Assembly: GCA_963845755.1 (NCBI GenBank) | Contig: CAWJTV010000034.1 | Coordinates: 512,001-576,000, forward strand | Origin: an uncultured Planctomycetota bacterium | Lineage (GTDB): Bacteria > Planctomycetota > Planctomycetia > Isosphaerales > Isosphaeraceae | DNA: 64,000 nucleotides | Direction: 5' to 3' | Shown: one piece after another, positions 8,782 to 33,773 of the stretch | How positions within the stretch are numbered: position 1 is the first letter of the stretch | How the letters are laid out: the number at the start of each line of letters is the position of its first letter | The notes under the pieces: model-generated | Told to the model about the DNA's origin: nothing | What the model saw: the letters and a program-made list of their open reading frames with translations, nothing else | Database searches by the model: none | Translations under genes and position numbers: made by a program

Positions 8782-9454
8782 GCCATGCTGATCTCGCAGT
8801 CGTGATTTCCGGGTGTGGGCTGTCGATGAGGTGGGCGCGCACGATGACTTACAGATATTATGGGACACTTGAGCGTGCCTGGCCACGAATTCTGGAAGAA
8901 AAGTTGGCGGCGACCGGGTGTCGCCGAGGGCGAGTCGGGAAGATATACCTTTGAAGGTCAAGGGCCGCCGGCCGTGATGGCGGTATGGGAGGAGTTCCGC
9001 TCGAGGTGTGGGCTGGCCATCAGTGCAACGTCGAACCGGGCGGACAGCACGGCGAGCCGGTGGCCCAGGCATGGGCTCACGTCCTCGGCTCGCCATCTGA
9101 ACACCAGAGCAGGGGGAACGGCCGGCGGATCATGCCCTGCTGCGCCGATTATCACGCGGGTGATCTGCTCGCGGCCTTGGTCAGGTCCCGGGTGACCATC
9201 GGAAGCCGTAGAGAAGGCGCCCGCATCAGGGGTCTTCGTCCGCCGGAACAGGGAAGAGTGCAGAGGGGGTTCGGGGGAGAGGGGACGTGTCACGCGACAC
9301 CAAGTTGGATCGCGAAATCCCGACACCCGGTTTGATCGTACCTGCTCATCGGTGCGCGTTTATGGGTCGAAGGTGACAGTCGTTCAGGAGCGAAAAGGGC
9401 GGCAGCGTCAGAGCCGATCCAGCCCGCAGAGGGCCAGAGGCAACCCCTGTGGGT

Positions 9455-9695
9455 GCTTCGGTGTCGTCGGACGAATGGCACTAGCTTAAGCGTAACACTT
9501 TATGCCATTTGAGCTTAAGTGCGGATCTCCAGACATATTTTCAACGATTGTAGATATTCGCTTGTAATATTGATAGAGAGTTTAGCCTCAAATCAAGCCA
9601 CATGGACCCAACCTCATATCCTCCTGAATACTATTAATGGGCAAACCGTCGCGACACAACTCGTTTTCTGAAAACGAGTTACGCTTAAGCTAGTG
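9455..9695. repeat. Arm-core-arm unit 1 (core 9484-9690, 207 bp, flanked by TA); right arm split by intron, resumes 12134-12156
   Basis: ACGAATGGCAC TA GCTTAAGCGTAAC ... GTTACGCTTAAGC TA GTG|CCATTCGT. Confidence 0.9.
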
Positions 9696-12133
9696 ATGAG
9701 GTAGGCGGCCAGCCCCTTGATCTCAAGGGAATCCAACCGCCCCCTCCCGAACCGGACAGGCACGTTTTCGTGCATCCGGCTCTCCAGACACAGGATCTAC
9801 ATTTGTGTCACGGTCCAACCCGGTATGCCAGGTCCGCCAGTCGGAGGCCATCATATTCTCCTCGGTGGATCTTACGGTGGCACTCTCGGCAGACGGGCAC
9901 TTGCTTCCGGTTCTGGAGTCGCATCAGCCAGGCAAACCCACCGACAGGTTTGCCCTCCATCTTTCGGATGTGACGGACGTGGTGCATCTGCACCCCGACC
10001 GTTGTTTCGCAGATGATGCATGGGTGGTCCAGGCGGGACCTTGTCCGGAATCGGACGTGCATCTCCAGTGGGTCGGTTTGATCTCTTCCCGTTAGAAATG
10101 CCGTGGGGTTCCGGGTCCAGTCGGAGTTGGCTTTGAAGAAGGTGTTCCGTTCCTTCCCCTCGCCGTCTTTCCAGTTGAATTGCAGAGTGCGTCCGTGTTC
10201 GCAGAGGAGCTGCTTAACGGGCTTCTGCAACTTGTGGGCTAAGGTCTTCGCAAGTGACAAATGCAGGATGTACTGGATACGGCTCATGGAGGCGAAGTTG
10301 TCAGCAAACCTGTAGTAGTTCAACAGCCCCCAATTGGTGCTGTTGAACAGTTCGATGATGTGCTTCACCTCCAGGCAGACCCACGCTGTCTTGGATCGGG
10401 CGATGCCCTCACCGTCACAGAAGCCCTTCTGGTGAAGACGCTTGACCAGTTTCCTGATCGGCGCTCGCATCAGCGGGCTCCACCCCGTACACCGGCGCCG
10501 GTAGTGCCGCCGTTGGTTGTGGCAGTGGGTAACCTTGGGCTGTGGGTTGACGGCCCCCACCTGAAGCCGCGTCCCGAGAAAGAAGGCCTCCTCGGTCTTG
10601 GCGTGAGTGACGACCGTCTTTTCCTGGCTGAGTTGCAGTTTCAGCCTGTCCCATAGGAACGCCTGAATCTCGTCCTTGATCTGTTCGGCCAGGGACCTCG
10701 GCCCCGTGACGCCGACGATCCAATCGTCTGCATATCTGATGTATTTGACTCTGACGAAGCCAGGGTCAAACGTGTCCATCGACGGGAGAGATCGCATCTG
10801 TTTCGTCAAAGCGCGAATCTCCGGCGTCATGATCCCACCTGACCGTTTCAACGCTCGCTGCCTGCGATAGTTGATCCGGTGATACTCGGGGCTGTCCTTC
10901 CGCTTGCTGCCCTTCTCGTACTTCTGCTGTAGTCCCTCGACGAAGAGGTCGAGTTCGTGCAGGTAGATGTTGGCGAGGATAGGGCTGGCCACGCTCCCCT
11001 GCGGGGTCCCGATAAACGAGGCCCCCGGTTCCTTCCTCCATAGGTAGCCTGCCCGGAGTGCTTTCCAGATCAGGCCGATGAAGCGTTCGTCCGAGATCCT
11101 CTTCCGGATCAGGGAAACCAGGACGTGGTGATCGATCTCGTCGAAGCAGGATTTTATATCCCCTTCGATGATCCACGTCACACCAGACCACTTGGTCCTG
11201 AACTCATGCAGGGCCGTGTGAGTCCCTCGACCAGGCCGAAAACCATGGCTACAGTCGCTAAAGGTAGGCCCTTTCGGACTGTCGTAGATCGCTTCGAGGA
11301 TCACATGGATGACCTCTTGGACGATCTTGTCCCTTGGGGATGAGATGCCGAGAGGCCGCATCTTGCCATTTGCCTTGGGAATGTATTCCCGCCGCGAAGG
11401 CTTGAATTGGAAACCCTCGTCTCGCAGGGTCGCCACGATGTCGTCGATGGCATCCATGGAGAACCCATCGAGAGTCATCCCGTCGGTGCCAGGAGTCAAG
11501 TTCCCGGGAGCGGATTTGATTTTCTCATACGCGACGATGTAGAGATCCGTCTTGTAGAGGAGTCGATACAGATCCGCGTTGACCCAGTTGAGGTCCGTGT
11601 TGCACTTCCGCAGTGCTTCAAGCCTGAGTAGGGCTGAATGACTCATCCGAGTCACCCCGTTCTTGGTGAAGCCCTGTGTCCTGTCCCCCTTGGGCCGATG
11701 CCTACTACGGGGACTCTGTCGCCTTGGGCATTGCTGCCGTTAGGCGATCCCGTGGTTGTCGGTCAGGTCCGGTCCACGTTGAGGGCCTCCGTTCATCCCT
11801 TGCCCCTGCTCATTGCAGGGTGTGTCCTGCCGGAAGATCACGGAGGTGAATGGCATGCCCCCGTGAGACAGGAATCCGGGTTTCAGCGTCATTCCCGGCG
11901 GTGATCGAGCACACCCACTGGGACTGGAGTTCAAGCAATCCAGCCTTACCCATGCGTGGCCTAACTTGCGAACGTCTCTCGGCCCTTTGACGCTGGGCCT
12001 CACGTCGCTTCTTCCGCATGCTGTTGTCCCCTCGATCCTTTCGGTTGAAGGTCAGCGGAACGTTTGACCCGCCTTCTTCCAGCGGGGTCGGGGCACTCCC
12101 GACAAGACCAGACAAACCTTAGCCACGGCGCAC
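9696..12133 (-). mobile_element. Group II intron copy 1 (2438 nt)
   Basis: 5' GTGCG, 3' ...ACCTCAT, domain V GAGCCGGATGC...GTCCGGTTC, RT ORF. Confidence 0.95.
9808..11655 (-). CDS. Group II intron-encoded RT/maturase/HNH endonuclease (LtrA-like, 615 aa)
   Basis: YIPKANGKMRPLG, EGDIKSCFD, PQGS, YIRYADD; C-terminal CIIC...HHVRH...CRECH. Confidence 0.95.
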   Translation of the reverse strand: MTRMSHSALLRLEALRKCNTDLNWVNADLYRLLYKTDLYIVAYEKIKSAPGNLTPGTDGMTLDGFSMDAIDDIVATLRDEGFQFKPSRREYIPKANGKMRPLGISSPRDKIVQEVIHVILEAIYDSPKGPTFSDCSHGFRPGRGTHTALHEFRTKWSGVTWIIEGDIKSCFDEIDHHVLVSLIRKRISDERFIGLIWKALRAGYLWRKEPGASFIGTPQGSVASPILANIYLHELDLFVEGLQQKYEKGSKRKDSPEYHRINYRRQRALKRSGGIMTPEIRALTKQMRSLPSMDTFDPGFVRVKYIRYADDWIVGVTGPRSLAEQIKDEIQAFLWDRLKLQLSQEKTVVTHAKTEEAFFLGTRLQVGAVNPQPKVTHCHNQRRHYRRRCTGWSPLMRAPIRKLVKRLHQKGFCDGEGIARSKTAWVCLEVKHIIELFNSTNWGLLNYYRFADNFASMSRIQYILHLSLAKTLAHKLQKPVKQLLCEHGRTLQFNWKDGEGKERNTFFKANSDWTRNPTAFLTGRDQTDPLEMHVRFRTRSRLDHPCIICETTVGVQMHHVRHIRKMEGKPVGGFAWLMRLQNRKQVPVCRECHRKIHRGEYDGLRLADLAYRVGP

Positions 12134-12380
12134 CCATTCGTCGATCACACCGAGGCAAGCAAGCAGTAGAGGGATGACGATCTGCCTGGCTCCGCGCGGC
12201 GGTTGCGGCGCGGGGGCGTTCCGTTCACGATTGACCCGCCAGGTCTTCGGTCTCGCGTCCATCCTCGGATCCTCTCCTGTGGTAAGAAGAAGGATGACGA
12301 AGAGGCCGCCAGCCGGATACCCGGTCCTTCAATACCTGCAATTCGGTAGGATCAGGAGAATCGCAAGGGAGCCTCGCATC

Positions 12381-13163
12381 ATGAGCATCTTCGACCGATT
12401 CAAATTGACGGGAAAGCGTCTCTTCATCACGGGAGGTAGTCGCGGCTTGGGACGGGAGATGGCACTCGCGATCGCCGAGGCCGGCGCCGACGTGATCCTC
12501 GTTGGCCGCGACCCGGCAGGTTTGGAGAAGGCAGCCGGCGACATCCGCGCCCTGGGCCGCCAATGCTGGACCCTCGCGGCGGACGTCGGAAAGCCGGCCG
12601 AATGCGAAGAGGCGTGCCGGTTGGCTCTGGATCATCACGGCCCGATCGACATTCTGATCAACAACGTGGGCGGCCGGCACGAGAACATCCCCACGGAAGC
12701 GATGTCGCTCGACAAATGGCGCGAGCTGATCGACCTGAACCTCACCAGCTGCATGCAATGTACGAAATGGCTCGGCGCGGCGATGATCGAGCGCGGCGGG
12801 GGCGGGCGAATCATTAACATCGCTTCGATCAACGCGCTCGTGGCGGGGCGTGGCATCACGGGCCGGCACTACGAGACAGCGAAGGCGGCGATGCTTCAGT
12901 TCACCCGCGCGGTCGCGGCCGACTGGGCGGTGCACAAGATCACGGTAAACGCCATCCTGCCGGGCGGCTTCATGACAGAGGCGAACCAGCGCTGGTCCGA
13001 AATCCATCCGGAGGTGATCGAGCAGTTCCGCGCCAATATCCCGCTGGGCGATTTCGGCCAGCCGGAGGATCTTGGGCCGCTCGCGGTGTACCTGGCCAGC
13101 GACGCCTCGCGCTACATGACCGGGGCAGCCCTGGTGATCGACGGCGGGTACACGTTGTGGTAG
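12381..13163 (+). CDS. SDR family oxidoreductase
   Basis: TGGSRGLG, NNVG, YETAK catalytic motif, DGG C-terminus. Confidence 0.92.
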   Translation: MSIFDRFKLTGKRLFITGGSRGLGREMALAIAEAGADVILVGRDPAGLEKAAGDIRALGRQCWTLAADVGKPAECEEACRLALDHHGPIDILINNVGGRHENIPTEAMSLDKWRELIDLNLTSCMQCTKWLGAAMIERGGGGRIINIASINALVAGRGITGRHYETAKAAMLQFTRAVAADWAVHKITVNAILPGGFMTEANQRWSEIHPEVIEQFRANIPLGDFGQPEDLGPLAVYLASDASRYMTGAALVIDGGYTLW

Positions 13164-13215
13164 GAAGACTGACGCGGGAATGTGATCACGCCAGTCTCCT
13201 TGTCGAGGACTTGAA

Positions 13216-14035
13216 ATGAACGGACCCAGAACGGTCAGATCGTTCGTGTCAAGTAGCCCGGAGTATCATCGGGCATTCCAAGCGTTCCTGGCCCACACTG
13301 ACCAGAAGGACAAGGCCAGGGAGTGGATAAGGCACGAGGTCGACGGGCTCGCGAATCGGTCGGTCATGATTGACGCGGGCGCCGGCAGCGGGCGGCTCAC
13401 TTCGTGGCTCACTCCGCTGTTCGGGACTGTGATCGCCATCGAACCGAACCCCTCCATGGAGTCGGAGCTTCGGATCGCTTGCCCAGACGCGGTGGTGATC
13501 GCCGCCACGATCGCCTCGGCCTCACCGCCGACGGCAGGGGACTTCGTGCTGTGCTCGCACGTGTTCTATCACATCCCCCGGTCGCAGTGGGAAGCGACCT
13601 TGCTGCACTTGATGGGCTGGCTAGCTCCCGGGGGCGTTCTCGCCGTCGCGTTGCAGAACCCCCGTGCTGACTGCATGCGCATGGTCAACCATTTCCTCGG
13701 GGGCCGCCTCGATCTGAGCGAGCTTTGCCCGATGGCGAACGCAGAGGATGGTGAGTATGAGGCACGGCTGGAGACCGTTCCTGCTCACATTCGCGCGCCC
13801 GACCTCGGGACAGCCTGCGAGATCGCCGAATTCTTCCTGAATGACCTGCCCATGCCCGCGCCACCGAGGTGGGAGGACCTGGAGCATTACGTTGAACGAG
13901 CATTTCAAGCAGGCCGAAGGTGGTTACCAGCTCTCGTGTCATCAAGACTTCTTACGAGTCTCCAGATCGATTGGATCGCCTCTATCGGCGATAAGAGCGG
14001 ACCGTCCGCACGGGGCGCGGCGGTCGTCCCCTTGA
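13216..14035 (+). CDS. Class I SAM-dependent methyltransferase (frameshift near 13900)
   Basis: IDAGAGSG motif I, IEPN, LCSHVFYHI, LAPGG. Confidence 0.8.
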
Positions 14036-14224
14036 TCTGGGGGCGAGAGCTTCTGCGCCAAACGGTGCAGGGACTGGACCACCGTTCGGCTCGTCTCGGG
14101 AGGCCGACGGTTGATTGGCGGCTGGATGGACCGGACTATCTGGGTCTGGGACGCGACGCCGCTGCCGGAATAGCAGCGAGGGTGGGGACACTGTTCGCAG
14201 TCGTCCTCAATCGGCCGGCTCCGC

Positions 14225-14420
14225 CCGTGCAGACCTCACCTTCCTCGCGATGACGCGGCAGCGGTTCGGTCGGCCGCAAGAGGCCCGAGAGGGCCTCGAC
14301 CGCCTCCGGGAGAACCTGGAGGACCCAGCCCGCGCTAGATGGCGAGGCCCCGGGCTTCTTGCGCGAGGCCCGAGCGGTCTTTGCCGCTTCACGCCGTTGG
14401 CCTGCGAGCCACGCTGCTGA
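14225..14420 (+). pseudogene. C-terminal TPR-like fragment of a planctomycete kinase/WD40-type protein
   Basis: 'DLTFLAMTRQRFGRPQEAREGLDRLRE' resembles such C-termini; no N-terminus present. Confidence 0.4.
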
Positions 14421-14481
14421 ACGATCAGCCCGGCGTGCCGCGTCGCCGTGATCTCGCCGCCGTGGAGCGCCTTCCTTTTGC

Positions 14482-14746
14482 GCGCGTCGGTCCGACGACA
14501 CGAATGGCACTAGCCTAAGCGTAAGTCGCTGATACTAAGTGACTTGTGTCTGTGACGGTCGGGGTTCTTGCAGAGAATACCCGACTATGATCATGATTTG
14601 ACGATGGGCTAGCCGGGAAACCAAGGCCTCAGATGGAGCCCCTAGGAATCCGGTCCATGGATCAAGGAAGTCCATTGTTTGCAAGTTCAATTTCTGCCAG
14701 AGGTTGCGCTTATGCTAGTGCCATTCGTGTCGTCGGACCGACGCGC
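14482..14746. repeat. Arm-core-arm unit 2 (core 14513-14715, 203 bp)
   Basis: Perfect 33-bp inverted repeat 14482-14514 / 14714-14746 containing ACGAATGGCACTAGC. Confidence 0.9.
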
Positions 14747-14841
14747 AGAGAGCCGTTCCACAAGACGCCGGTGAATCCAGAACTAACCGCGTCCCTGTTC
14801 CCCTCCCTTGGATACAAATTCAAGAGGACTCGGTTTCACGC

Positions 14842-15470
14842 TCAAGCGAATCCCTTGTCTTTGAGCCACTTCTCAATCACAGATGGAAGGGTGGTGCCCG
14901 GGTTTCTCGTGTCGAAGGGCTTGTAGAGTTTGCCGTTCAGATCGGCTTGAAGGGTCTTGAGAGTCTTGTCCTTCAGCAGTAAGACCGGCTTGTTGAGGGC
15001 CATCATGTAGCCGACCTCTAGGCCGACATTGGGATTGAACTCCTCTTGCTCGATCCGATCGAAGATGGCGATGCCGAAGCCGCAGCCGTGCATGTAGGTC
15101 TTGATATTGGAGAAGGTGTCGTCGTCGTATTCCTTGTGATCGGCCCGCATGGCGGCAATTCCATGCTTTGCGGTCGTCTCCTGGATCACACGGACGATGT
15201 CACTGTGAGCGTCGGTCTCGGTGAACCGCATCATATGAAGGCGGCCTTGCGTGGGTCGGGATGCTCAGCCTGGAACGCCTGGAGGCTTTCTTGGATATCG
15301 GGCGGCAAAGATGGAAGGCTTGGCTTCGGCGGTAATGCTTTGCTTCTTCGTCCAGATGGGCGAGTCGAGACTGAACCTGGATCAGGCATCTCAACGAGCG
15401 CAGCACTCGAATAGTTCGCCAGGCGCCGCCCCTTTCCTTCGTCCCACACGCATTCAAGATTGCTAAACAT
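14842..15470 (-). CDS. Nucleoside 2-deoxyribosyltransferase-like / TIR-like domain protein (1-nt frameshift at ~15233)
   Basis: The two ORFs join as ...KAAFI-MMRF...; motifs RAD and NPNVGLEVGYMMALNKPVLLL. Confidence 0.6.
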
Positions 15471-15565
15471 TGAGTCTACTTGCGCAGTATGGGTAAGCTG
15501 GCCCCCCCCTCAGACTACGCAGTCCGCTTGGAATATTAGCAATATCCCTCGGCAAAGACGAGGAA

Positions 15566-16660
15566 TCAGCTCGAGCCGAGTCCCTCATACTCGGGGGATA
15601 GCCGGTAACTCCGCGACTTCCTGGCCGGGTCAACCACGAGCACGAACCCGCCGCTCACCCATGAAGAGAGGATGTTCCGGGCCGTCCTCTGGGAGACGCC
15701 GAAGAGGCCCTCGACGTCGCGGCTGGTGATGACGACCGAGCGGCGGAAGAGCTCCAGGGCCCGGCGCCGGCGGGGGTCGAGGCGACGCAGCGCGGCCGAG
15801 TCATCCCTCATGCCCCGGTCGGCGGCCTCCCGGGCGCGGCGGCGGACGCTCTCGAAGCTGTCGGCCATGCCCGCGCAGAAGTATTCGACCCACGCCGTGA
15901 TGTCCGCCTCGGCACGGCCCTGATAGTAATTGTGCGACGGCCCGACCGCCAATGCCCGGTAGTAGGCCGACAGGTCTCTGGCGTAGTATTCTTCCAGCGA
16001 ATAGAGCCCCTTCAGGTCGTACCCGCCCCGGTGGAGGATCAGGGTCGTCAGGAGCCTCGCCGTGCGGCCGTTGCCGTCGTAGTAGGGGTGGATCGTGGCG
16101 AACTGGTAGTGGGCGATCCCGGCGCGGATCGGGCACGGGACGCCCTCGTGCTCGCTGCGCCGGAGCCAGTCGACGAGCTCCTCCATGAGCCGGGGGACAT
16201 CCGATGCCTCCGGGGGCATGTAGACGATCCGACGGCTGCCGGCGTCGCGGATCACGTTCTGCCCGCCCCGGTATGGGGTGGGCTTCTTCACCGCCTTGCC
16301 GCTGGCCATCACGAGGGCGTGAAGGGTTCGGACCTGGAGGTCCGTCACGTCCCCTCCCTGGGCCGCGAATCGTTCGAGCCGCTCGATCGCCGCGTAGTAG
16401 CCGAGGACCTCGGCCTCGTCTCGCTCCCGGCCCGGGAAATGCCTCCCCTGCTCGATCAACGAGGAGACCTCCTCCCGAGCGAGGCGGTTGCCCTCGATCA
16501 TCGTGGAGTAGTGGGTGGAGAAGAGCCGCGCGGTCTCGCGGAGGCCGGCGAGCACGGAGGACGTGATCGGCAGGTCCTCCACGGCCTGCCGGGCCGCCTC
16601 GATCCTCATGAGGTGGGTCGCGGTGCGGGGCGTGATCCGGTAGTTGGGCTCGAACGGCAT
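15566..16660 (-). CDS. Fic family protein with C-terminal HTH
   Basis: STMIEGN, HPYYDGNGRTAR, C-terminal 'VSQRTARNILS'. Confidence 0.92.
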   Translation of the reverse strand: MPFEPNYRITPRTATHLMRIEAARQAVEDLPITSSVLAGLRETARLFSTHYSTMIEGNRLAREEVSSLIEQGRHFPGRERDEAEVLGYYAAIERLERFAAQGGDVTDLQVRTLHALVMASGKAVKKPTPYRGGQNVIRDAGSRRIVYMPPEASDVPRLMEELVDWLRRSEHEGVPCPIRAGIAHYQFATIHPYYDGNGRTARLLTTLILHRGGYDLKGLYSLEEYYARDLSAYYRALAVGPSHNYYQGRAEADITAWVEYFCAGMADSFESVRRRAREAADRGMRDDSAALRRLDPRRRRALELFRRSVVITSRDVEGLFGVSQRTARNILSSWVSGGFVLVVDPARKSRSYRLSPEYEGLGSS

Positions 16661-17005
16661 TCGGCGGCACTTTCTCGGTCGGTTTCCTTGCCGTTATTGT
16701 GCCGTTAAAGTGCCGATAAATCAAGCGATCGGTGTGGGTCGAGGTAGGCACTCTGCTCACAACCTGGGACGCGTATCTGGATTGCGGCGTCGCCGGCGAG
16801 GCGGCGGGGGGTGAACGCCGACATTGCGATTAGTCCGACGCTTGGGCGGTCTAGACAAGCGCATGTCCCGCCGGGCCGGCTCGATGGCCGCCCCGCCCCG
16901 GGCCCGGCCCGGCCGATCGCCGGACGGAGCCGGTTCGTCCAACAGACGGGGCGGAGTCGGGCCGGAGCCGGCGACGTTGCTTGCTTCGGTGGGATCGACG
17001 AATGG

Positions 17006-19443
17006 GTGCGCCGTGGCTAAGGTTTGTCTGGTCTTGTCGGGAGTGCCCCGACCCCGCTGGAAGAAGGCGGGTCAAACGTTCCGCTGACCTTCAACCGAAA
17101 GGATCGAGGGGACAACAGCATGCGGAAGAAGCGACGTGAGGCCCAGCGTCAAAGGGCCGAGAGACGTTCGCAAGTTAGGCCACGCATGGGTAAGGCTGGA
17201 TTGCTTGAACTCCAGTCCCAGTGGGTGTGCCCGATCACCGCCGGGAATGACGCTGAAACCCGGATTCCTGTCTCACGGGGGCATGCCATTCACCTCCGTG
17301 ATCTTCCGGCAGGACACACCCTGCAATGAGCAGGGGCAAGGGATGAACGGAGGCCCTCAACGTGGACCGGACCTGACCGACAACCACGGGATCGCCTAAC
17401 GGCAGCAATGCCCAAGGCGACAGAGTCCCCGTAGTAGGCATCGGCCCAAGGGGGACAGGACACAGGGCTTCACCAAGAAAGGGGTGACTCGGATGAGTCA
17501 TTCAGCCCTACTCAGGCTTGAAGCACTGCGGAAGTGCAACACGGACCTCAACTGGGTCAACGCGGATCTGTATCGACTCCTCTACAAGACGGATCTCTAC
17601 ATCGTCGCGTATGAGAAAATCAAATCCGCTCCCGGGAACTTGACTCCTGGCACCGACGGGATGACTCTCGATGGGTTCTCCATGGATGCCATCGACGACA
17701 TCGTGGCGACCCTGCGAGACGAGGGTTTCCAATTCAAGCCTTCGCGGCGGGAATACATTCCCAAGGCAAATGGCAAGATGCGGCCTCTCGGCATCTCATC
17801 CCCAAGGGACAAGATCGTCCAAGAGGTCATCCATGTGATCCTCGAAGCGATCTACGACAGTCCGAAAGGGCCTACCTTTAGCGACTGTAGCCATGGTTTT
17901 CGGCCTGGTCGAGGGACTCACACGGCCCTGCATGAGTTCAGGACCAAGTGGTCTGGTGTGACGTGGATCATCGAAGGGGATATAAAATCCTGCTTCGACG
18001 AGATCGATCACCACGTCCTGGTTTCCCTGATCCGGAAGAGGATCTCGGACGAACGCTTCATCGGCCTGATCTGGAAAGCACTCCGGGCAGGCTACCTATG
18101 GAGGAAGGAACCGGGGGCCTCGTTTATCGGGACCCCGCAGGGGAGCGTGGCCAGCCCTATCCTCGCCAACATCTACCTGCACGAACTCGACCTCTTCGTC
18201 GAGGGACTACAGCAGAAGTACGAGAAGGGCAGCAAGCGGAAGGACAGCCCCGAGTATCACCGGATCAACTATCGCAGGCAGCGAGCGTTGAAACGGTCAG
18301 GTGGGATCATGACGCCGGAGATTCGCGCTTTGACGAAACAGATGCGATCTCTCCCGTCGATGGACACGTTTGACCCTGGCTTCGTCAGAGTCAAATACAT
18401 CAGATATGCAGACGATTGGATCGTCGGCGTCACGGGGCCGAGGTCCCTGGCCGAACAGATCAAGGACGAGATTCAGGCGTTCCTATGGGACAGGCTGAAA
18501 CTGCAACTCAGCCAGGAAAAGACGGTCGTCACTCACGCCAAGACCGAGGAGGCCTTCTTTCTCGGGACGCGGCTTCAGGTGGGGGCCGTCAACCCACAGC
18601 CCAAGGTTACCCACTGCCACAACCAACGGCGGCACTACCGGCGCCGGTGTACGGGGTGGAGCCCGCTGATGCGAGCGCCGATCAGGAAACTGGTCAAGCG
18701 TCTTCACCAGAAGGGCTTCTGTGACGGTGAGGGCATCGCCCGATCCAAGACAGCGTGGGTCTGCCTGGAGGTGAAGCACATCATCGAACTGTTCAACAGC
18801 ACCAATTGGGGGCTGTTGAACTACTACAGGTTTGCTGACAACTTCGCCTCCATGAGCCGTATCCAGTACATCCTGCATTTGTCACTTGCGAAGACCTTAG
18901 CCCACAAGTTGCAGAAGCCCGTTAAGCAGCTCCTCTGCGAACACGGACGCACTCTGCAATTCAACTGGAAAGACGGCGAGGGGAAGGAACGGAACACCTT
19001 CTTCAAAGCCAACTCCGACTGGACCCGGAACCCCACGGCATTTCTAACGGGAAGAGATCAAACCGACCCACTGGAGATGCACGTCCGATTCCGGACAAGG
19101 TCCCGCCTGGACCACCCATGCATCATCTGCGAAACAACGGTCGGGGTGCAGATGCACCACGTCCGTCACATCCGAAAGATGGAGGGCAAACCTGTCGGTG
19201 GGTTTGCCTGGCTGATGCGACTCCAGAACCGGAAGCAAGTGCCCGTCTGCCGAGAGTGCCACCGTAAGATCCACCGAGGAGAATATGATGGCCTCCGACT
19301 GGCGGACCTGGCATACCGGGTTGGACCGTGACACAAATGTAGATCCTGTGTCTGGAGAGCCGGATGCACGAAAACGTGCCTGTCCGGTTCGGGAGGGGGC
19401 GGTTGGATTCCCTTGAGATCAAGGGGCTGGCCGCCTACCTCAT
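17006..19443 (+). mobile_element. Group II intron copy 2 (2438 nt), inverted relative to copy 1
   Basis: GTGCG at 17006; domain V at ~19358-19391; ends CAT 19443; I saw differences from copy 1 only at 17231 and 17480. Confidence 0.95.
17484..19331 (+). CDS. Group II intron-encoded RT/maturase/HNH endonuclease (identical protein to copy 1)
   Basis: Same 615-aa translation, YADD motif. Confidence 0.95.
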   Translation: MTRMSHSALLRLEALRKCNTDLNWVNADLYRLLYKTDLYIVAYEKIKSAPGNLTPGTDGMTLDGFSMDAIDDIVATLRDEGFQFKPSRREYIPKANGKMRPLGISSPRDKIVQEVIHVILEAIYDSPKGPTFSDCSHGFRPGRGTHTALHEFRTKWSGVTWIIEGDIKSCFDEIDHHVLVSLIRKRISDERFIGLIWKALRAGYLWRKEPGASFIGTPQGSVASPILANIYLHELDLFVEGLQQKYEKGSKRKDSPEYHRINYRRQRALKRSGGIMTPEIRALTKQMRSLPSMDTFDPGFVRVKYIRYADDWIVGVTGPRSLAEQIKDEIQAFLWDRLKLQLSQEKTVVTHAKTEEAFFLGTRLQVGAVNPQPKVTHCHNQRRHYRRRCTGWSPLMRAPIRKLVKRLHQKGFCDGEGIARSKTAWVCLEVKHIIELFNSTNWGLLNYYRFADNFASMSRIQYILHLSLAKTLAHKLQKPVKQLLCEHGRTLQFNWKDGEGKERNTFFKANSDWTRNPTAFLTGRDQTDPLEMHVRFRTRSRLDHPCIICETTVGVQMHHVRHIRKMEGKPVGGFAWLMRLQNRKQVPVCRECHRKIHRGEYDGLRLADLAYRVGP

Positions 19444-19683
19444 CACTAGCTTAAGCGTAACAGCTTATGCCATTGGAGTTTAGGCACGGGTCGTCAGGCA
19501 TATTTTCAGCGATTGCAAATATTCGCTTGTAATATTGATAGAGGATTTGGCCTCAATTCAAGCCACATGGACCCAGCCTTATATCCTCCTGAGTACTACT
19601 GATGGGATAAACATTGCGACGCAACTCATTTTCTAAAAAAGAGTTACGCTTAAGCTAGTGCCATTCGTGGGATCGACCGAAGC
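19444..19683. repeat. Arm-core-arm unit 3 (core 19449-19655, 207 bp); left arm split by intron, begins 16983-17005
   Basis: Core aligns without gaps to core 1 in the same orientation (about 85% identity by hand count). Confidence 0.9.
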
Positions 19684-19925
19684 ACCTTCGAAACATGCCT
19701 TGTGGCTGGACGCCACTCTGTGCGTCTGTCACCTTCGACTCGTGAACGGGCACCGATGAAGAGGTTCGATCAAACCGGGTGTCGGGATTTCGCGATCCAA
19801 CTTGGTGTCGCGTGACAGGACGCGTCTCCTCCGAAACTCATCACGAGCGCGGGCGAAGCCCGCCACCGCTGGCGTTGGCGCCTAGAGCGATTCACGCTTG
19901 GGTGGCTGACGGTCGGGGGACAGAG

Positions 19926-21328
19926 CCCCATACGAAACTGGTTAAGCCGCAATCCTTGGTGCGAACAGCAGTTGTCGCGTACTGGGGCGTTTCTTCCGTC
20001 GGCCACGCCGGGGCAAACGACTCAAGCGGACTCGCAGTTTCTCCAACACCCGCCGCAACCGCGCTGGGTCGCTCAGCGCCGCGGCGATTTGCAATGCCAG
20101 CCGCTTCACCCGCCGAGCCGCCCGGACCAGGCTGATCCCACACAGGGGCCCTCCGCGCAGCAGCGTCCCCCAGTGCTGCACCAGCATCCCCAACAGCTTG
20201 GCATACCTCTCGCACAACACCCGCTGGCCCCGCCGACCCCGCGTCCGGTCCACACCCCCTCCCGATTTCCACGCCTTATACAACAACTCCACCTGCCAGC
20301 GGACACGATAAAGCACGCAGATTTCTTCAATTGTCAACGTGCCCGCCGGCAAATCGGTGATCAGCACCGTCCCCTGGCACATCACGCGCTGGCGATCACT
20401 CAGCGTCTTCCCCTTCTTCCGCAGCTCCTTTCGCAGCCGACGCAATCGGATCTCGGCCACCTCCCGGGGCACCCGCAGGGCCACCAACCGACAGCCCAAG
20501 GTCGCCTTGGTCCCCAGGACGACCGTAGTGTCGATCCGACCCTCCGTTTGCCGATCCAACCACGCGCTGATATTGACCCCACCCGGCTCACCGGCTCGCA
20601 CTTTCAACTGCGCCGGGACGCGGCTGATAAAGTGAATCCCCTTCTGCTGATCGGCGGCCAGTCGTTCCAGGTCGAAAAAGCCCAGGTCGCACAACCGCAG
20701 GCTGTTGGCAGGTAAGGGCGCCAGCTCCTCGGCCAGGGTTCGCTCAGAATCGCGCGCCGGTGCCGGTGGCTGAATCTCCAAGCGGCCGGTGGTCACATCC
20801 CACCGCGTCAAGAGCTTCCATCCCGCTTGACCGCCTTGGGGATCAGAGCCACCACAGCCGGGGAAGGATCCGGCCAATTCGGCCGGCAACCCGACGATGG
20901 TGACGTCCTCGACGGAAACGGTCGCGAAGCGGCGCAACAGCGGAATCATCTCGGGCCGGGCCGCGAACAGCAGGTTCAACGCCTTCTCGAGCACCCGACG
21001 CAAACAGTCCGCGGCGCGGGCGTTGAAGCGTTCGTTGAAAGCCGCCTCGCTGATGTCGAGGTCTTCAATGATCTCCTCAATGGTGGCGTCGGGATTCTCC
21101 AGCCAATGAAAGACCAGGGCCTGGACGAATCGGGACCCGGTGAGCTTGCGCTGGCGCCGAATCATGCCGGAATCCTTGGCAGCCTCATCGGCGTCGGTGG
21201 TGAAGAGGGCTTGCAAGGCATCAGCCAGTTGATCGATCGTGATGGTCATCCGGTACTCCTCCGGTGCGGAAATACTGATCAAATGTATTGTACCAGAGGA
21301 GTTACTTCTTAACCAGTTTCTCATGGGG
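19926..21328 (-). mobile_element. IS4-family insertion sequence
   Basis: TIR CCCCAT(AC/GA)GAAACTGGTTAAG at both ends; no clear target duplication. Confidence 0.85.
19942..21249 (-). CDS. IS4-family DDE transposase
   Basis: DLGF motif and Y-R-E-K signature YRVRWQVELLYKAWKS. Confidence 0.9.
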   Translation of the reverse strand: MTITIDQLADALQALFTTDADEAAKDSGMIRRQRKLTGSRFVQALVFHWLENPDATIEEIIEDLDISEAAFNERFNARAADCLRRVLEKALNLLFAARPEMIPLLRRFATVSVEDVTIVGLPAELAGSFPGCGGSDPQGGQAGWKLLTRWDVTTGRLEIQPPAPARDSERTLAEELAPLPANSLRLCDLGFFDLERLAADQQKGIHFISRVPAQLKVRAGEPGGVNISAWLDRQTEGRIDTTVVLGTKATLGCRLVALRVPREVAEIRLRRLRKELRKKGKTLSDRQRVMCQGTVLITDLPAGTLTIEEICVLYRVRWQVELLYKAWKSGGGVDRTRGRRGQRVLCERYAKLLGMLVQHWGTLLRGGPLCGISLVRAARRVKRLALQIAAALSDPARLRRVLEKLRVRLSRLPRRGRRKKRPSTRQLLFAPRIAA

Positions 21329-21383: not shown

Positions 21384-22765
21384 TGTCACCCGACAGTAGG
21401 TTTTGCCGCGAATCCCGACAAAAAGGTTTTGCCGCCTCGTGGCGGGGGGTAGTCTGTGATGGTCCGATCCTGCCAACTCCTGCGAGGGTCACTATGCCCG
21501 CTCCACTCCCGCCGACAACCCGGCGCCTCATCTTGCTACGATCCCGTCGCGGCCAGACCGCGGCGGCCATCGCGGACGCCCTGCATCTCTGCCCCCGCAC
21601 GGTCCGGCACCTGCTCCAGCGGGCTCGCGACCCGGCGAGCCCTCAGGGGACCGCTTATCGGCCCGGTCCGGGGCGGCCCGCCGACGACCACCCGCTCCGA
21701 GCCCAGGCCCTGGCCCTGCGACAGCAGCATCCGACCTGGGGAGCGGGCTACATCCGCGTCCGCCTGGCCACCGAGGCCGACCCGGCGACGGTGCCTAGCG
21801 AGCGCGCACGTTGCGGCGCTGGTTCCGCCGCCAGCGGCACCCGCCTGCGGCGGGGGGACGGCGGTCGCCGTCGGCCGCCGACCGTGCCATCGCCCCGCAT
21901 GACATCTGGCAGAGGGACGCCGCGGAGCAACTCCGCACGGCCGACGGCCAGGGCGCTGCTGGCTGCGGCTGGTGGATGAATATACGGGGGCCTTCCTGGG
22001 CACCACGGTTTTCCCCCCACTACTACTGGGCCCACGTCCCCGAGGCCGAGGTGCAGCGGCACTTGCACCGCGCCTTCGAGCGGTGGGGGCTGCCGCGCCG
22101 CATGCGGGTCGATAACGGCAAGCCGTGGGGGTCCTGGAGCGACCTGCCCCCCGCGCTGGCGTTGTGGCTGATCGGCCTGGGGGTCGGCGTGATCTGGAAC
22201 GACCCGCGGCGGCCGCAACAGAACGGCGTGGTGGAGCGGTCGCAGGGGACGGCCAAGCGGTGGGCGGAGCCGCACGCCTGCGGCAACCCGGCGGAGCTGC
22301 AGGCCCGCCTGGACGCCGACGACCGGTTGCAGCGGGAGCGGTATCCCGTCGCCGGGGGACACAGCCGTTGGGAGCTGTTCCCGGGTCTGGCGCACAGCGG
22401 CCGCGCCTACCGCGAGGCGGACGAGGCCGGCGCGTGGTGCCGGGGGCGGGTGCGCGACCACCTAGCGGAGTGGGCCGTGCCGCGCCGGGTGGACAGCCAG
22501 GGAAAGGTGTCGATCTATAACAGGAATATCTATGTAGGAGTGTTATATGCGGGCCGGGACGTCTGGGTCCAGTTCGACCCGGGGCACGGCGAGTGGCTGA
22601 TCAACGACGGCGGGGGCCAGCAGCTGCGGGCCCGGCCGGCCCCCGAGATCGACGCGGAGTCGATCCGCGGGTTGCGATTGTCGGGACGGAAGTAGGGACC
22701 GCCGGGTGTCCATGCGGCAAAACCTTTATGTCGGGATTCGCGGCAAAACCTACTGTCGGGTGACA
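21384..22765 (+). mobile_element. IS481-like insertion sequence (TGT...ACA)
   Basis: 52-bp TIR with 1 mismatch; 5-bp GCCCC duplication (21379-21383 / 22766-22770). Confidence 0.88.
21494..22695 (+). CDS. IS481-like rve transposase (frameshifted)
   Basis: N-terminal HTH, HPTWGA, WQRD, RVDNG, PQQNGVVER. Confidence 0.8.
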
Positions 22766-28805: not shown

Positions 28806-28973
28806 GCGTCAGTCGGATCGACGAATGACAGTAGACTAGGCGCAAGTGTTTTCTGATAAATGACTTGGACCTGTACAGGGCCGGTCGTTTAGGGGAAAAA
28901 TCTTAGTCTGTTCACATTATGATTAATTGGCTGGCCGGGAAACATAGGGCTCCAGATGGAGACCCCGAGAATC
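28806..28973. repeat. Degenerate, truncated arm-core unit 4
   Basis: GCGTCAGT-N7-ACGAATGACAG TA GACTAGGCGCAAG; interior resembles core 2 (GCCGGGAAAC...CAGATGGAG...GAATC). Confidence 0.75.
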
Positions 28974-28989
28974 AAGCACGCGAGGAACA

Positions 28990-29523
28990 GGAAGCAGCAT
29001 CGCGAATGGTAACGGGCAGACGACGCTCAGCCCCGTGTATGAGTTCTGGTACGCCGGACTCCCCGGCGGAGGGGTGATCCGGGGCGGCACCGGCGTGACG
29101 GTCCCGACAAGCGGTGCGGCTGGGGCCCGGACGCTTTACAAATACGACTTCTCCGTCGGGAAGTACTGGACCCCACACGATGCGTGGCCGGGCGACTTGG
29201 TCACCTATCTCTCGATCAACGGCTTTACCACCCTGGACGACCGCGGTCCGACTTACTCGTATCTCAGAGGCTGTCTCGGAAGGTCTTTGTAGGGTGCTCT
29301 GTGAGCACCAAGCCGGCGTAGTTTGCCGAATTCGGTGCTCACAGAGCACCCTACGGGACGGCCATCGAGGCTTCCGGGACAGACTCTAAGTTTGACACCG
29401 GGCCCGCGCTTCCACGTGCGAAACAACGACTATTTCTCCGCAGGAGTCGAGGTTCCTGTAACCGGACCCAAGACCGAGAACTACGCCTTCGCGCCGATGT
29501 TCTGGATCACCAAGTCCTGGTGA
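28990..29523 (+). pseudogene. 5'-truncated outer-membrane-type protein gene interrupted by a MITE
   Basis: ORFs 29035-29292 and 29323-29523 share a frame; removing 29267-29389 restores ...TYSYL-SLTPG...; ends in aromatic residue. Confidence 0.6.
29267..29386. mobile_element. 120-bp MITE containing a GTAG-type REP doublet
   Basis: TIR GAG(G/T)CTGTC(T/C)CGGAAG, TCA/TAA flanks; perfect 21-bp IR 29289-29309 / 29334-29354. Confidence 0.75.
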
Positions 29524-29834
29524 CCGACCGAACGAGACCGGCGCGATTAGCTCGGCGCGGGCCCGATGTCCCGGGCCGGGGCCGGTCCCAGGATCAGCGA
29601 GTATCCCGCCATCTCCTTGCCATCCCCAGACCTCCTAGCTACAACCGTTGAAGGGGCCCTCCCTCGTTATTCGCGATATTCCTTGAGCAGATAACCAGCG
29701 GAGGCCCCAGTCATCGCGCGTCCGGAGGCAGACCAGGTGGCCGGATGCGAGCGAAGCCCCTCGATGAGTGGGCGCTCTTGATCGCGGCTTCGTGCGTGCT
29801 CATTCTACACACGGACCAACGAAGGAGACTTCCC

Positions 29835-31010
29835 ATGTCCAACATGCAGAGGCGTGAATTCCTGGCGGGTGCGGGGCTCACGGCCGCGGCGGCCGCGGCG
29901 CTGGCGAGCCCGAGGGCTGCCGAGGCCGGCGATCCGAGCTTCATGAACAACGTCCCGGACCCGCTTCTCGCGGGCGAAGAGCTGCCGACGTTCAAGTACG
30001 AGCTGGAGAAGTCGGCGGGGAAGGTCATGGACGGCAGCGAAGCCAGAGAGGCCACGGTCAAGCAGCTTCCGATCTCCAAGGGGATCGCCGGGGTTTCGAT
30101 GACGCTGGCCCCGGGCGCCATGCGCGAGCTCCACTGGCACGCCACCGCAGCCGAGTGGGCGTTCGTGGACAAGGGGCGAGTCCGGACGACCGTCCTCGCC
30201 CCGGGGGGTTACACCGAGACGAATGACTTTGAGCCGGGGGACGTCTGGTACTTCCCGCGCGGCCACGGCCACATGCTCGAGTGCGTCGGCCAGGAGGCGT
30301 GCCACTTCGTCCTGATCTTCGACAACGGCTACTTCTCCGAGTTCGGCACCTTCAGCATCACCGACTGGATGGCCCACACCCCCAAGGCGCTCCTGGCGAA
30401 GAACTTCGGCGTCCCCGAATCGACCTTCGATGGGTACCCGAAGAAGGAGGTGTATTTCGCCCGGGGTGAGGTGCCGCCCAAGAAGGCGGCTGACCCGCTC
30501 GCGGGACCGAAAAAGCCGCCGATGACGCACAAGTGGCAACTCCTCGCCAGCGACCCGCTCGTCGACAACACGGGAGGCCGGCTGTGGCTGGTCGATTCCA
30601 CCAAGTTTCCCATCTCCAAGACCATCACAGGCGCGGTCCTCGAACTCGAGCCCGGGGCGCTGCGGGAGTTGCACTGGCACCCCACCGCCGACGAGTGGCA
30701 GTACGTCCTCGAGGGTAAGGTCAGCATGACGCTGTTCGGCTCGGGCGGGCGCTACCGGACGGAGACGTTCGAGAAGGGTGACGTCGGTTACTCCCCCCAA
30801 GGGTACGGGCACTCGATCGAGAACGTCGGCGACGGGAAGTGCCGCGTCCTCATCGGGTTCAACTCCGGGGTCTACGAGGAGATCGACCTGTCGGAATGGA
30901 TCGCCGGCAATCCGCCCGACGTGCTCGCCACCAACTTCGGTAAGCCGGCTTCGCATTTCGAGCAGTTTCCCCGCCGCGACGTGTTCATCACGTCCAAGGG
31001 CGGGACTTGA
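29835..31010 (+). CDS. Oxalate decarboxylase family bicupin with Tat signal
   Basis: QRREFL; two RELHWH...EW cupin motifs; GGAG RBS. Confidence 0.88.
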   Translation: MSNMQRREFLAGAGLTAAAAAALASPRAAEAGDPSFMNNVPDPLLAGEELPTFKYELEKSAGKVMDGSEAREATVKQLPISKGIAGVSMTLAPGAMRELHWHATAAEWAFVDKGRVRTTVLAPGGYTETNDFEPGDVWYFPRGHGHMLECVGQEACHFVLIFDNGYFSEFGTFSITDWMAHTPKALLAKNFGVPESTFDGYPKKEVYFARGEVPPKKAADPLAGPKKPPMTHKWQLLASDPLVDNTGGRLWLVDSTKFPISKTITGAVLELEPGALRELHWHPTADEWQYVLEGKVSMTLFGSGGRYRTETFEKGDVGYSPQGYGHSIENVGDGKCRVLIGFNSGVYEEIDLSEWIAGNPPDVLATNFGKPASHFEQFPRRDVFITSKGGT

Positions 31011-31255
31011 AGACCTTGGCCTGGTCTCCCGGGACCGCCGTCAAGAGGGCATGATCGGTGGGATCTGGCGACCTTGCTCACCGGCTCCGCCATGGGCACG
31101 AGGGAGGAGATCGCATGACCCTCGCGATCGGCTCGGCCGCTCCACCCCGGTCGGTCATCACCTGGAAATCGCGGCGGAGGCGGCTCCAGCAGACCTGGTG
31201 GTGGGGCCGGGGTTCCGATCGCAATCCGGGGATGGAGAAGCCGAGCCGTCGCGGA

Positions 31256-32517
31256 TCAGAAGTAGACCTGGAACCGCAACCAATACAGATCGTTCGACTT
31301 CTGGAAGCCACCTGCGTTGTAGAAGACGGGGCTGCCGAACATGGCGTGCTCCCAGTCGAGGTAGACCTTGACGAACTTGTTGAGATACCAGTTGAAGCCG
31401 ACGTCGACCATCTGGGCGCGGTTGGTCCAGAGGTTCGGGTCGGCCAGCCCGCCGGTGAAGACCGACCGGCCCAGCGTCAGCTCGCTGTATCGGGCCGTCA
31501 TCTCAAGGGCCCCCAGGCCGAAGTGCCCCGGACGCAGGTCGAAGGGGCGCAGGGGATCGATCAGCGTCCGGTCGCGGATCGTCTCGCCGGTCAGGATGTA
31601 CCCGGCCTGGACGAAATAGCCGCTCGTCGGCACACGGACCGGCGGCGGCCCGGAGCTGCCCTGGGCGTAATCCTGGAACCCGCTGTCCCAGGCCCCCAGC
31701 AGGGAGAGGCCCTGATAGTAGTAGGCCATGTGCAGCTCCCAGAGGGCGCGATACCCGCCGCTCCATCACGCCGTTGTTGAAGGCCAGGAAGGGGACCTGC
31801 GCGGATCCCGGGCTCAGTGTCGAGGTGGCTGCCGGTGGCGCCGAGGTCGTCAAGACGGCCGGCGAGAGGGGATTGTTCTCGATCCCCGCGTCGACTGAGC
31901 CGCCGATCTGCAGGTTCTGCAGGAAGGAATCCGTCCACGGATCGAACGGCTTGAAGTTGAGGAAGGCCATGACATCCTGGTGGCTGCTGAAGTTCAAGTA
32001 CGAGTTCCGCTGCCCGTCGAAGGATCCGACGGCGTACTCCAGCCGTTTCTCGAACAGGCTCCCCCACCCCATGAAGCCGAAGCGGCGGTTGCCCTCGAAG
32101 TTGGTGGCGAACAGCGACCGCTCGGGGGCGAGCAGGTGCCAGACGTGGACTCGGTACCATTCATAGGTGAAGGGGGTCTTGTAGCGGCCGAGCCGGAGCT
32201 GGAACCCGTCGCTAAATCGGTAGTTGAGGTAGCTATCCAGCAGGTTGAGAGTGGCGTAGGTCTGCTGGAACGAGAACTCGTAGGAGATGGGCCGGATCAG
32301 GTTGCCTTCGAAGTAGAAGCGGGTCCGCGGGTTGAAGATGCCGCTGCTGGCGAATTCCTGGTTGGAGTTGGCATAGATCCGCGCGTCGAGCTGCTGGAGC
32401 GCGCGGACGCCGAAGGTGATCTCGTTGTCCTCGGTACCCCAGCGGAACCCGTCGTTGGCGAAGTCGTACGTTCCGCCCAGCAAGGGGATCCTGCCGCGCT
32501 GGCGATTGCCCACAAGC
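31256..32517 (-). pseudogene. OprO/OprP-like porin, 5' end removed at the IS630 junction (also frameshift ~31755)
   Basis: GRYKTPF, ERSL, GFNWYLN, C-terminal RFQVYF; no signal peptide before the IS end. Confidence 0.75.
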
Positions 32518-32519
32518 TA

Positions 32520-33745: not shown

Positions 33746-33773
33746 TAGTGCCATTCGTCGGATCGACCGAAGC
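33746..33773. repeat. Isolated right 'arm' (TA GTGCCATTCGT-N7-ACCGAAGC)
   Basis: Near-identical to 19656-19683. Confidence 0.9.

Follow-up and report, generated by a model that had tools for sequence, protein, structure and literature searches.

What bounds the gene cassettes in a 64,000-nucleotide stretch of DNA from an uncultured planctomycete of the family Isosphaeraceae, and what could have moved them? The window (the whole of that stretch, G000:C34:512001-576000, G000 being the 14.3-Mb, 88% complete host genome) holds two cassettes set among three short core modules. A first-pass annotation had described their borders as six junctions of the form ACGAATGGCAC|TA|GCTTAAGCG, to be read either as recombination sites of a gene-capture system or as places where IS630-type transposable elements of the miniature inverted-repeat kind (MITEs) enter the centre of a palindrome. 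Comparison with 121 genomes of the family and with a phylum sample of 300 other genomes leads to another answer. The TA-centred junction system as first described is ordinary: its junctions are the ends of MITEs of the IS4 family of insertion sequences (IS), and the cores themselves are new examples of a kind of element already known. Outside these ends stand the halves of two palindromic sites, here called A and B, and this site pair is a real and probably undescribed module system. We explain the locus by five layers, namely modules bordered by A and B sites, IS4-type elements with their MITEs, a composite insertion, a group II intron, and a platform transposon; as a whole this account appears reasonably probable.

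The sites conform to GC(G/T)TCGGT-N7/8-ACCGA(A/C)GC, which is also the target of the IS4-type element. A scan finds 106 matches in the genome (65 bare and 41 adjoining an IS), against one in the reversed genome and one in the complemented genome, which served as controls. The spacers fall into two types: that of A has 8 or 7 bp and reads CCGACGAC, or CCGACAC in some relatives, and that of B has 7 bp, mostly N3-ATCG. One arm, X, usually bears an extra TTGCGC; the other is called Y. Exact bare sites are found in 54 of the 121 family genomes, with up to 84 copies in a genome and at least 8 in each of 19 (control matches occur in 4), and are absent from the other 67. In the phylum sample, 13 of the 300 genomes have one or two exact sites, near the control level; other planctomycete lineages do hold IS-adjacent sites. 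B spacers track the Y flank more than the X flank (36/92 versus 3/15, background 0.23), while A spacers are uninformative about spacer inheritance.

Arrangement and flanks follow a grammar. Every inward-facing X...X module has one A end and one B end (70 of 70, comprising 20 of 20 segments longer than 70 bp in this genome and 50 of 50 at other loci), as do 10 of 11 Y...Y segments in this genome and 48 of 50 at other loci. Inverted segments in this genome number 31 and direct ones 9. When 354 distinct bare sites are compared, pairs of one type with a common X flank have unrelated Y flanks in 42 cases for A and 15 for B and related ones in 3 (exact duplicates were dropped before the comparison, which lowers the count of pairs sharing both flanks, and the pairs are non-independent), and no X flank is crossed between the types. 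Flank families are confined to one side and one type in 58 of 61 cases. Modules join through short B-linker-A doublets of about 75 bp, the linker usually having 14-20 bp, or through longer platform flanks. Cassette 1 of the window illustrates the result: it occurs whole, at 96% identity, in a genome of another genus (G071), between a bare B site, whose spacer CGATCAC is the same as at its left border in the window, and a bare A site. Identity ends inside the spacers, after which a doublet and a further module follow. The breakpoints are thus the outer palindromic sites, which the first-pass annotation had folded into its junction consensus, and its proposal that the cassettes are mobile modules is right. 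Its own doubt had been that arm-core-arm units might prove scattered singly and the cassettes syntenic in relatives. The outcome is divided: the units are indeed scattered genome-wide, often singly, but in a relative cassette 1 breaks exactly at the sites.

It is likely, in our judgment, that the A and B sites border true recombination-bounded modules. Each module would have A at one end and B at the other, with X arms inward, and an enzyme whose gene lies elsewhere would recombine the sites specifically, pairing A with A and B with B and crossing over inside them. Tyrosine recombinases use inverted arms that enclose an oriented spacer of 7-8 bp, and they limit exchange according to spacer type. 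Because the spacers, arms and type-restricted exchange seen here suit that family, a tyrosine recombinase acting in trans would be the most likely mover, an identification that we hold at a little under even confidence. Taken to its full extent, the idea is that planctomycetes exchange gene modules independently of integrons and of XerCD, incompatible A and B sites bracketing every module and an unlinked recombinase swapping cargo by double crossover; this we regard as speculative and, on balance, doubtful.

Cargo is diverse. The 191 predicted proteins of 94 segments form 170 clusters and include oxidoreductases, methyltransferases and hydrolases as well as a beta-lactamase-fold protein and restriction-modification and TIR proteins. 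In the window, the SDR, methyltransferase and Fic genes assigned by the first-pass annotation score above Pfam cut-offs, its NDT/TIR-like open reading frame (ORF) has below-cut-off matches only, and its "TPR remnant" (ORF 14136-14510) is without a Pfam match. Cassette 1 opens with the cut-off left end (12171-12356) of a widespread element with a 427-aa transposase and a weak IS256 match, a hint at the origin of new modules. A 190-bp non-coding segment adjoins A sites in nine loci, with unrelated cargo after it (L434:4757-5073; G000:C39:198438-198645), and in the former it forms a 270-bp A-to-B mini-module. Directly repeated B sites with one common Y-flank family and no recognised A partner make an integron-like tandem at L417-L418 (G043:C8:764000-786000).

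The TA-centred pattern is itself real. TA is found at 9482, 9691, 14511, 14716, 19447 and 19656 in the contexts claimed, orientation alternates strictly, and the cores measure 207, 203 and 207 bp from TA to TA. TA is not the breakpoint, however, as it sits 9 bp inside an IS4-type terminal repeat, GT-N7/8-AC|GAATGG being the end, and ACGAATGGCAC, taken for a cassette end, belongs to the MITE end instead. An IS630-type MITE would have TA at its ends and duplicate it; here the family is IS4 and the duplication, of 11-12 bp, falls outside the arms. The empty palindrome that had been predicted does not occur in this genome at up to two mismatches per arm, nor its 20-bp centre in any of the 121 family genomes, and the two arms always accompany the core and, in long versions, an IS4 transposase. 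An IS630-like element that inserts at CTAG does occupy the TA of an IS4 end twice in the genome, among 28 listed ends. With the six alternating copies, that is what could be said for a recombination site or an IS630 target at TA, a reading which the missing palindrome, the position of the duplication and the mapping of the ends rule out for practical purposes and to which we give almost no credence. The cores as attP-like minimal integrative elements were likewise rejected, the long versions encoding IS4 transposase.

The arm-core-arm unit is a MITE of 225-229 bp with ends GAATGGCACTAGCTTAAG and an 11-12 bp duplication GT-N7/8-AC; it is short and non-coding and has its ends in common with autonomous IS4 elements, so that on the nature of the cores the second option of the first-pass annotation was right. 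At up to one mismatch the genome has 27 copies of the arm motif. Most form inverted pairs with a spacing of about 230 bp, and one pair stands 1.8 kb apart with a transposase between. A survey across GTDB for these ends returned at least 105 stretches with the motif, mostly from Planctomycetota, in which the DNA between paired arms is either non-coding and about 100-230 bp long or 0.9-4.4 kb long, most of the longer inserts encoding one transposase family. The copy at L006 scores above the NCBIfam IS4 cut-off (NF033592, 217 versus 115 bits) and is an intact, single-ORF DDE transposase with its Y(2)R(3)E(6)K motif at residue 315, while that of the host genome, on C47, appears frameshifted. Loci chosen by transposase similarity rather than by motif have at least one such end in 14 of 20 cases, including 5 of a distant clade at 42-46%. 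That the element's end is GAATGG is settled by L463, where TC replaces AC on both sides. Among 52 distinct elements with both ends in relatives, the GT-N7/8-AC repeat is identical in 35, different at 1-2 bases in 4, and unlike in 13 (5 more were excluded for doubtful ends, 3 of them with identical repeats), and in this genome identical repeats flank 7 of 14. The IS4-type elements and MITEs thus insert at the centre of the site and duplicate 11-12 bp. The MITEs fall into several size classes (about 100-130 and 205-232 bp); MITE3 is 86% identical to MITE1, and MITE2, with both ends intact, represents a second subfamily at 57-59% aligned identity to these two. Shared ends and dispersed copies suggest that they may be mobilised in trans by the partner transposase. 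Imperfect palindromes just inside the MITE ends (9490-9520, 14520-14550, 9660-9685) appear to resemble the consensus of integration host factor binding sites. A MITE shrunk to 30 bp, at L035:4966-5024, has its ends fused at TTAA rather than at TA.

The end GAATGGCACTAGCTTAAG agrees with the -AATR--------WTW signature of subgroup IS4, which also has 10-13 bp direct repeats and the YREK motif (Table 1, PMC2266710) and some members of which are noted there to be highly specific for both target arms. These features are found here as well. The autonomous copies (1839-1851 bp in five elements, or about 1.84 kb) exceed the typical 1400-1650 bp, a range that is no strict criterion, and differ from the subgroup as there described in having a module-border palindrome as target and several MITE size classes; the main text of PMC2266710 names no planctomycete. 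As an IS that seeks the recombination sites at module borders the element resembles the "pdif hunters" of the IS1202 family. One of these, ISAjo2, inserts 5 bp outside its site with a 5-bp duplication and leaves the site intact (PMC10132070); the IS4-type element, unlike it, enters mid-site and duplicates the spacer. Full-text searches, with ISfinder and supplements outside their scope, returned no published account of the A/B site, the IS4 target or the intron target; the IS4-type element may be catalogued in ISfinder already.

For the insertions themselves, the composite history of the window and the homing of an intron in the IS4 end, our confidence is high. The original unit would have been Y2-A-cassette 2-B-Y4, and a Y4...Y2 unit with other cargo is found at G000:C39:193076-198661. 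MITE3 has GTGGGATCGAC on both sides and would have entered the B site behind cassette 2 alone. Neither MITE1 nor MITE2 has matching flanks on its two sides. The 12 bp to the left of MITE1, however, reappear to the right of MITE2, and the inner flanks of the two are the B and A borders that cassette 1 has in G071. For these reasons MITE1-cassette 1-MITE2 would have entered the A site before cassette 2 as one composite transposon, the order following from which duplications match. The two MITEs being only 57-59% identical, homologous recombination cannot explain the arrangement. The proposal that a pair of MITEs mobilises the DNA between them is thus probably correct for cassette 1. The MITE3 repeats match across its 2.4-kb intron, which argues that the segment between the inverted introns has been assembled the right way round.

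The two introns that the first-pass annotation had removed are indeed near-identical group II introns, differing at 2 positions. Both have a domain V/VI RNA match to Rfam RF00029 (62 bits, at 9696-9784 and 19355-19443), and their ORFs have reverse transcriptase, maturase and HNH domains (Pfam); from Intron_maturas2 and the AI2M-like HNH we suspect class ML/IIA. The insertion point, GAATGG|CACTAG, lies 6 bp inside the IS4 end. Exon-binding site 1 (EBS1), CCAUUC, is complementary to the IS tip and lies in a predicted loop, and EBS2 reads UCGAUC in the first copy and CCGAUC in the second. All 13 true intron 5' ends (out of 16 word matches, the other 3 being non-intron) adjoin an IS tip, and a spacer ending in ATCG is found at 11 of 14 ends with the intron but at 5 of 31 without it (p=1e-4; about 3 of the 31 are likely chance matches). 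It would appear that the intron reads the IS tip by EBS1 and the B spacer by EBS2, and it probably disables the IS4 end. Other group II introns, such as the IIC-attC introns and RmInt1, also home into mobile elements as their EBS sequences dictate. The present one differs in that its target spans the IS tip (intron-binding site 1, IBS1) and the duplicated host spacer (IBS2), and therefore comes into being only once the IS is in place.

The block is larger than the first-pass annotation had claimed. It runs from 9288 to 19817, with TGT...ACA ends and a 5-bp duplication, hallmarks of IS481. Its left repeat has 51 bp identical to an end at G000:C45:6250-6300, beside a 140-aa IS481-like transposase fragment (best IS481 match 43.5 bits, below the cut-off of 224). 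Of the platform flanks, the Y2 family has 7 aligned copies in the genome, always adjoining an A site, and the Y4 family 6, always adjoining a B site; their outer ends match those of a single-ORF IS66 element with an 8-bp duplication at G000:C16:1242-2774 (L465). IS66-type and then IS481-like ends would have made the platform a non-autonomous transposon, whose last transposition would have left the 5-bp duplication. To the right of the block, the window holds a different IS4 transposase above the NCBIfam cut-off (19942-21324), and an IS481-like element (21384-22765, GCCCC duplication) inside a hairpin repeat that also holds the IS481-like end at G000:C45:6300. A fourth IS4-type unit (28823-33756) sits in a B site with an identical 11-bp duplication. 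Its left half is worn, and between this and the right end it carries genes for a cupin and a porin-like protein together with an IS630-like element (about 32518-33747), which is inserted at the CTAG of the right end. Table 1 lists the features of the block.

Table 1. Features of the block, with positions in the window
Feature	Position	Strand	Remarks
5-bp target duplication GGACG	9283..9287 and 19818..19822	+	left and right copy
Left terminal repeat of outer 10.5-kb element (9288-19817)	9288..9338	+	TGT start, IS481-like
Platform flank Y2	9352..9454	+	begins at worn IS66-type end
Half A site	9455..9472	+	Y arm 9455-9462, spacer GTCGTCGG, AC
12-bp duplication	9461-9472		matched at 14727-14738
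MITE1, IS4 subgroup	9473..12139	+	229 bp without intron; intron splits right end 6 bp from tip
Group II intron, copy 1	9696..12133	-	ORF 9808-11655
Half B site	12140..12156	+	GT, spacer CGATCAC, X-side arm; left border of cassette 1
Cassette 1, X...X module	12157..14483	+	SDR 12381-13163, methyltransferase 13216-14253
Half A site	14484..14501	+	X arm, spacer CCGACGAC, AC; right border of cassette 1
MITE2	14502..14726	+	225 bp, both ends intact
Half A site	14727..14744	+	GT, spacer GTCGTCGG, X arm; left border of cassette 2
Cassette 2, X...X module	14745..16982	-	NDT/TIR-like ORF 14842-15234 (below cut-off), Fic ORF 15566-16660
Half B site	16983..16999	+	X-side arm, spacer GGGATCG, AC
11-bp duplication	16989-16999		matched at 19667-19677
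MITE3	17000..19666	+	229 bp without intron; intron splits left end 6 bp from tip
Group II intron, copy 2	17006..19443	+	ORF 17484-19331; EBS2 17231-17236, EBS1 17286-17291
Other half of B site	19667..19683	+	GT, spacer GGGATCG, Y arm
Platform flank Y4	19684..19753	-	ends in IS66-type end
Right terminal repeat of outer element	19767..19817	-	ACA end

Several results weigh against recombination between A and B sites by an unlinked enzyme, or against parts of that account. No recombinase is linked to the sites, in flanking DNA or among module proteins. The 2.03 Mb of site-flanking DNA has 9 tyrosine-recombinase matches, approximately the genome-wide density (43 in 14.3 Mb), and the 123 module proteins scanned, of about 170, include no tyrosine recombinase or HUH enzyme (there are one resolvase fragment, one IS110 fragment and several IS transposases). 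None of the 60 largest protein clusters from 283 site-flanking regions is a recombinase cluster, the top ones being kinase/TPR, IS4 and SDR, and the HUH and serine recombinase genes of the genome are not beside sites, save one inside an intron insertion on C11. Neither circles nor inversions nor excision joints appeared in four contig sets, which cannot show absence; public runs contained at most 16% of the query words. The site scan and the X/Y labels derive from the A and B spacers, making spacer conservation partly circular, and the X-arm motif backs the labels in part (AX 104/164, BX 84/190, AY 18/164, BY 23/190). Strict alternation is not universal, as direct-orientation segments show; only 12 of the 37 long ones are accompanied by a decayed partner no more than 120 nt from the Y end (control 4/150). 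Cassette 2 is a mosaic. It was not found whole in the 120 other family genomes, its A end, B end and Fic gene turn up separately in relatives, and two flanks examined of that Fic gene (92-97% identical) are without these sites. The matching duplications of the composite could be due to chance, the A-type duplication being the commonest spacer. Finally, ends or transposase of the IS4 clade occur in 19 of 19 site-rich but only 14 of 67 site-free genomes. This co-occurrence is compatible with IS4 as the mover, and a parasite would track the sites too.

Two mobile tyrosine recombinases were considered as the enzyme. The family of the one at G000:C33:117191-117775 occurs in 13 of the 19 genomes rich in sites, in 5 of the 35 poor in them and in 4 of the 67 that have none; kinship and genome size confound this tracking as well as that by IS4. 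It is not favoured: it has a dif-like palindrome of its own upstream, and an A or B site follows within 150 nt downstream at only 3 of 30 loci. This palindrome is conserved just upstream in many loci of the family (L319-L325, L328, L332, L333, L338, L339, L341) and is probably its own resolution site. The second recombinase adjoins an array in L347 and likewise comes with a dif-like motif of its own. Further dif-like palindromes, which form a distinct family, are found at G000:C40:96689, 108021, 123504 and 131800, C41:370871, C24:7807 and C39:272953.

In one competing explanation IS4 is the engine: MITE-pair composites would move, later excision with repair across the 11-12 bp repeats would leave bare sites, and no separate recombinase would be needed. 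Its ubiquity in site-rich genomes fits, and so do the unlike flanks, such as composite moves give, that 13 of the 52 elements in relatives and 7 of the 14 in this genome have; a distant IS4 clade also targets GT-N7-AC palindromes (L457, L460, L462). Six genomes that have numerous sites but lack an exact IS4 end (G005, G006, G008, G029, G030, G044) were tried as proof that the sites are independent of IS4, which fails, since each holds a more distant member of the clade. A composite move, however, gives the same spacer at both outer ends and should often yield AA or BB modules, which are seen in 0 of 70; the B-linker-A doublets, the X/Y asymmetry and the one-sided flank families are left unexplained, and a site-hunting IS follows its target whatever made it. 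We consider IS4 an improbable engine. The same absence of AA and BB modules tells against a reading, unlikely though deserving of some weight, that likens A and B to the dimorphic palindromes known as repetitive extragenic palindromic (REP) sequences, their mosaic elements (BIMEs) and REPINs. Such repeats would be spread as hairpin doublets by an HUH enzyme of the REP-associated (RAYT) type, the modules being whatever DNA lies between repeats, moved by repeat-mediated rearrangement, and IS4 merely targeting them. About 100 copies in two variants, with alternating orientation and doublets, do fit dimorphic REPs and BIMEs as set out in PMC2817692; several doublets fold into one long hairpin as single-stranded DNA, and cassette 1 opens on a truncated IS end, as would result from a site being set into older DNA. 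A REP is defined by a GT(A/G)G head before the palindrome, and the rayt gene is flanked by two inverted repeats of its family (PMC2817692). Here the site logos have no such head, none of 10 Y1 transposase genes in the genome (88% complete) is flanked by a full site, random doublet orientation would produce the AA and BB modules, and X flanks that meet unrelated Y flanks put the break within the palindrome; the sites also differ in clustering at module borders.

The analogy with Acinetobacter pdif arrays, drawn by the first-pass annotation, stands in the grammar of the underlying sites and falls in their sequence. A divergent pdif system read by the host's own XerC and XerD would be one form of the enzyme proposed above, and we think it a slim prospect. 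As in dif modules (PMC13141974), the sites have two unlike arms with oriented spacers, like arms facing inward and alternating module types (here with direct-orientation exceptions), diverse accessory cargo, and no recombinase in cis. Dif prediction failed for the sole planctomycete in PMC3025954, and 5 near-complete family genomes have no conserved canonical dif-like site. By the same comparison (PMC13141974) the present sites differ in having unrelated arms, spacers of 7-8 bp in two fixed types across genera, a second module type that is usually a 14-20 bp linker or a transposon-end platform, and a location in chromosome-sized contigs. The XerC- and XerD-like genes (G000:C34:357572-358648 and C33:301921-303234) look ordinary. 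The site logos show GC-rich arms, unlike the familiar XerC and XerD arms, which enclose 6 bp. Single copies were rejected as chromosomal dif, their contexts being non-syntenic in 15 loci, and 67 of 121 family genomes have no exact site. Integrons offer a further comparison. A doublet resembles attC in having two simple sites, one a base longer, in a hairpin fold, and in being parasitised by IS and intron. R boxes of the form RYYYAAC ... GTTRRRY stand at the ends of attC; the doublets have no GTTRRRY box, a single site works as a border, both halves show breaks, many modules hold several genes, and no integrase lies beside the arrays (an IntI-like gene is present at G000:C3:161170-162195, on a contig without a site in the scan). 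The rAID-1 arrays of Bacteroidales are likewise non-integron gene arrays with repeat borders, but have a recombinase gene at the head, and none was found in the arrays here.

If the A and B sites are recombination sites, they add a further modular gene-capture route to integrons and pdif arrays. Were modules bracketed by two incompatible sites to prove exchangeable in this way, it would be a natural form of recombinase-mediated cassette exchange, and genome engineers could put the site pair and its new enzyme to use in swapping cassettes. The IS4 clade is a clear case of sequence-specific targeting by a DDE transposase, with a short, defined target. If true, the module system would be old and active enough to have drawn an IS4 clade of its own that hunts the sites, along with several families of MITEs and an intron that seeks out the IS within the site; little work has been done on the mobile DNA of this phylum.

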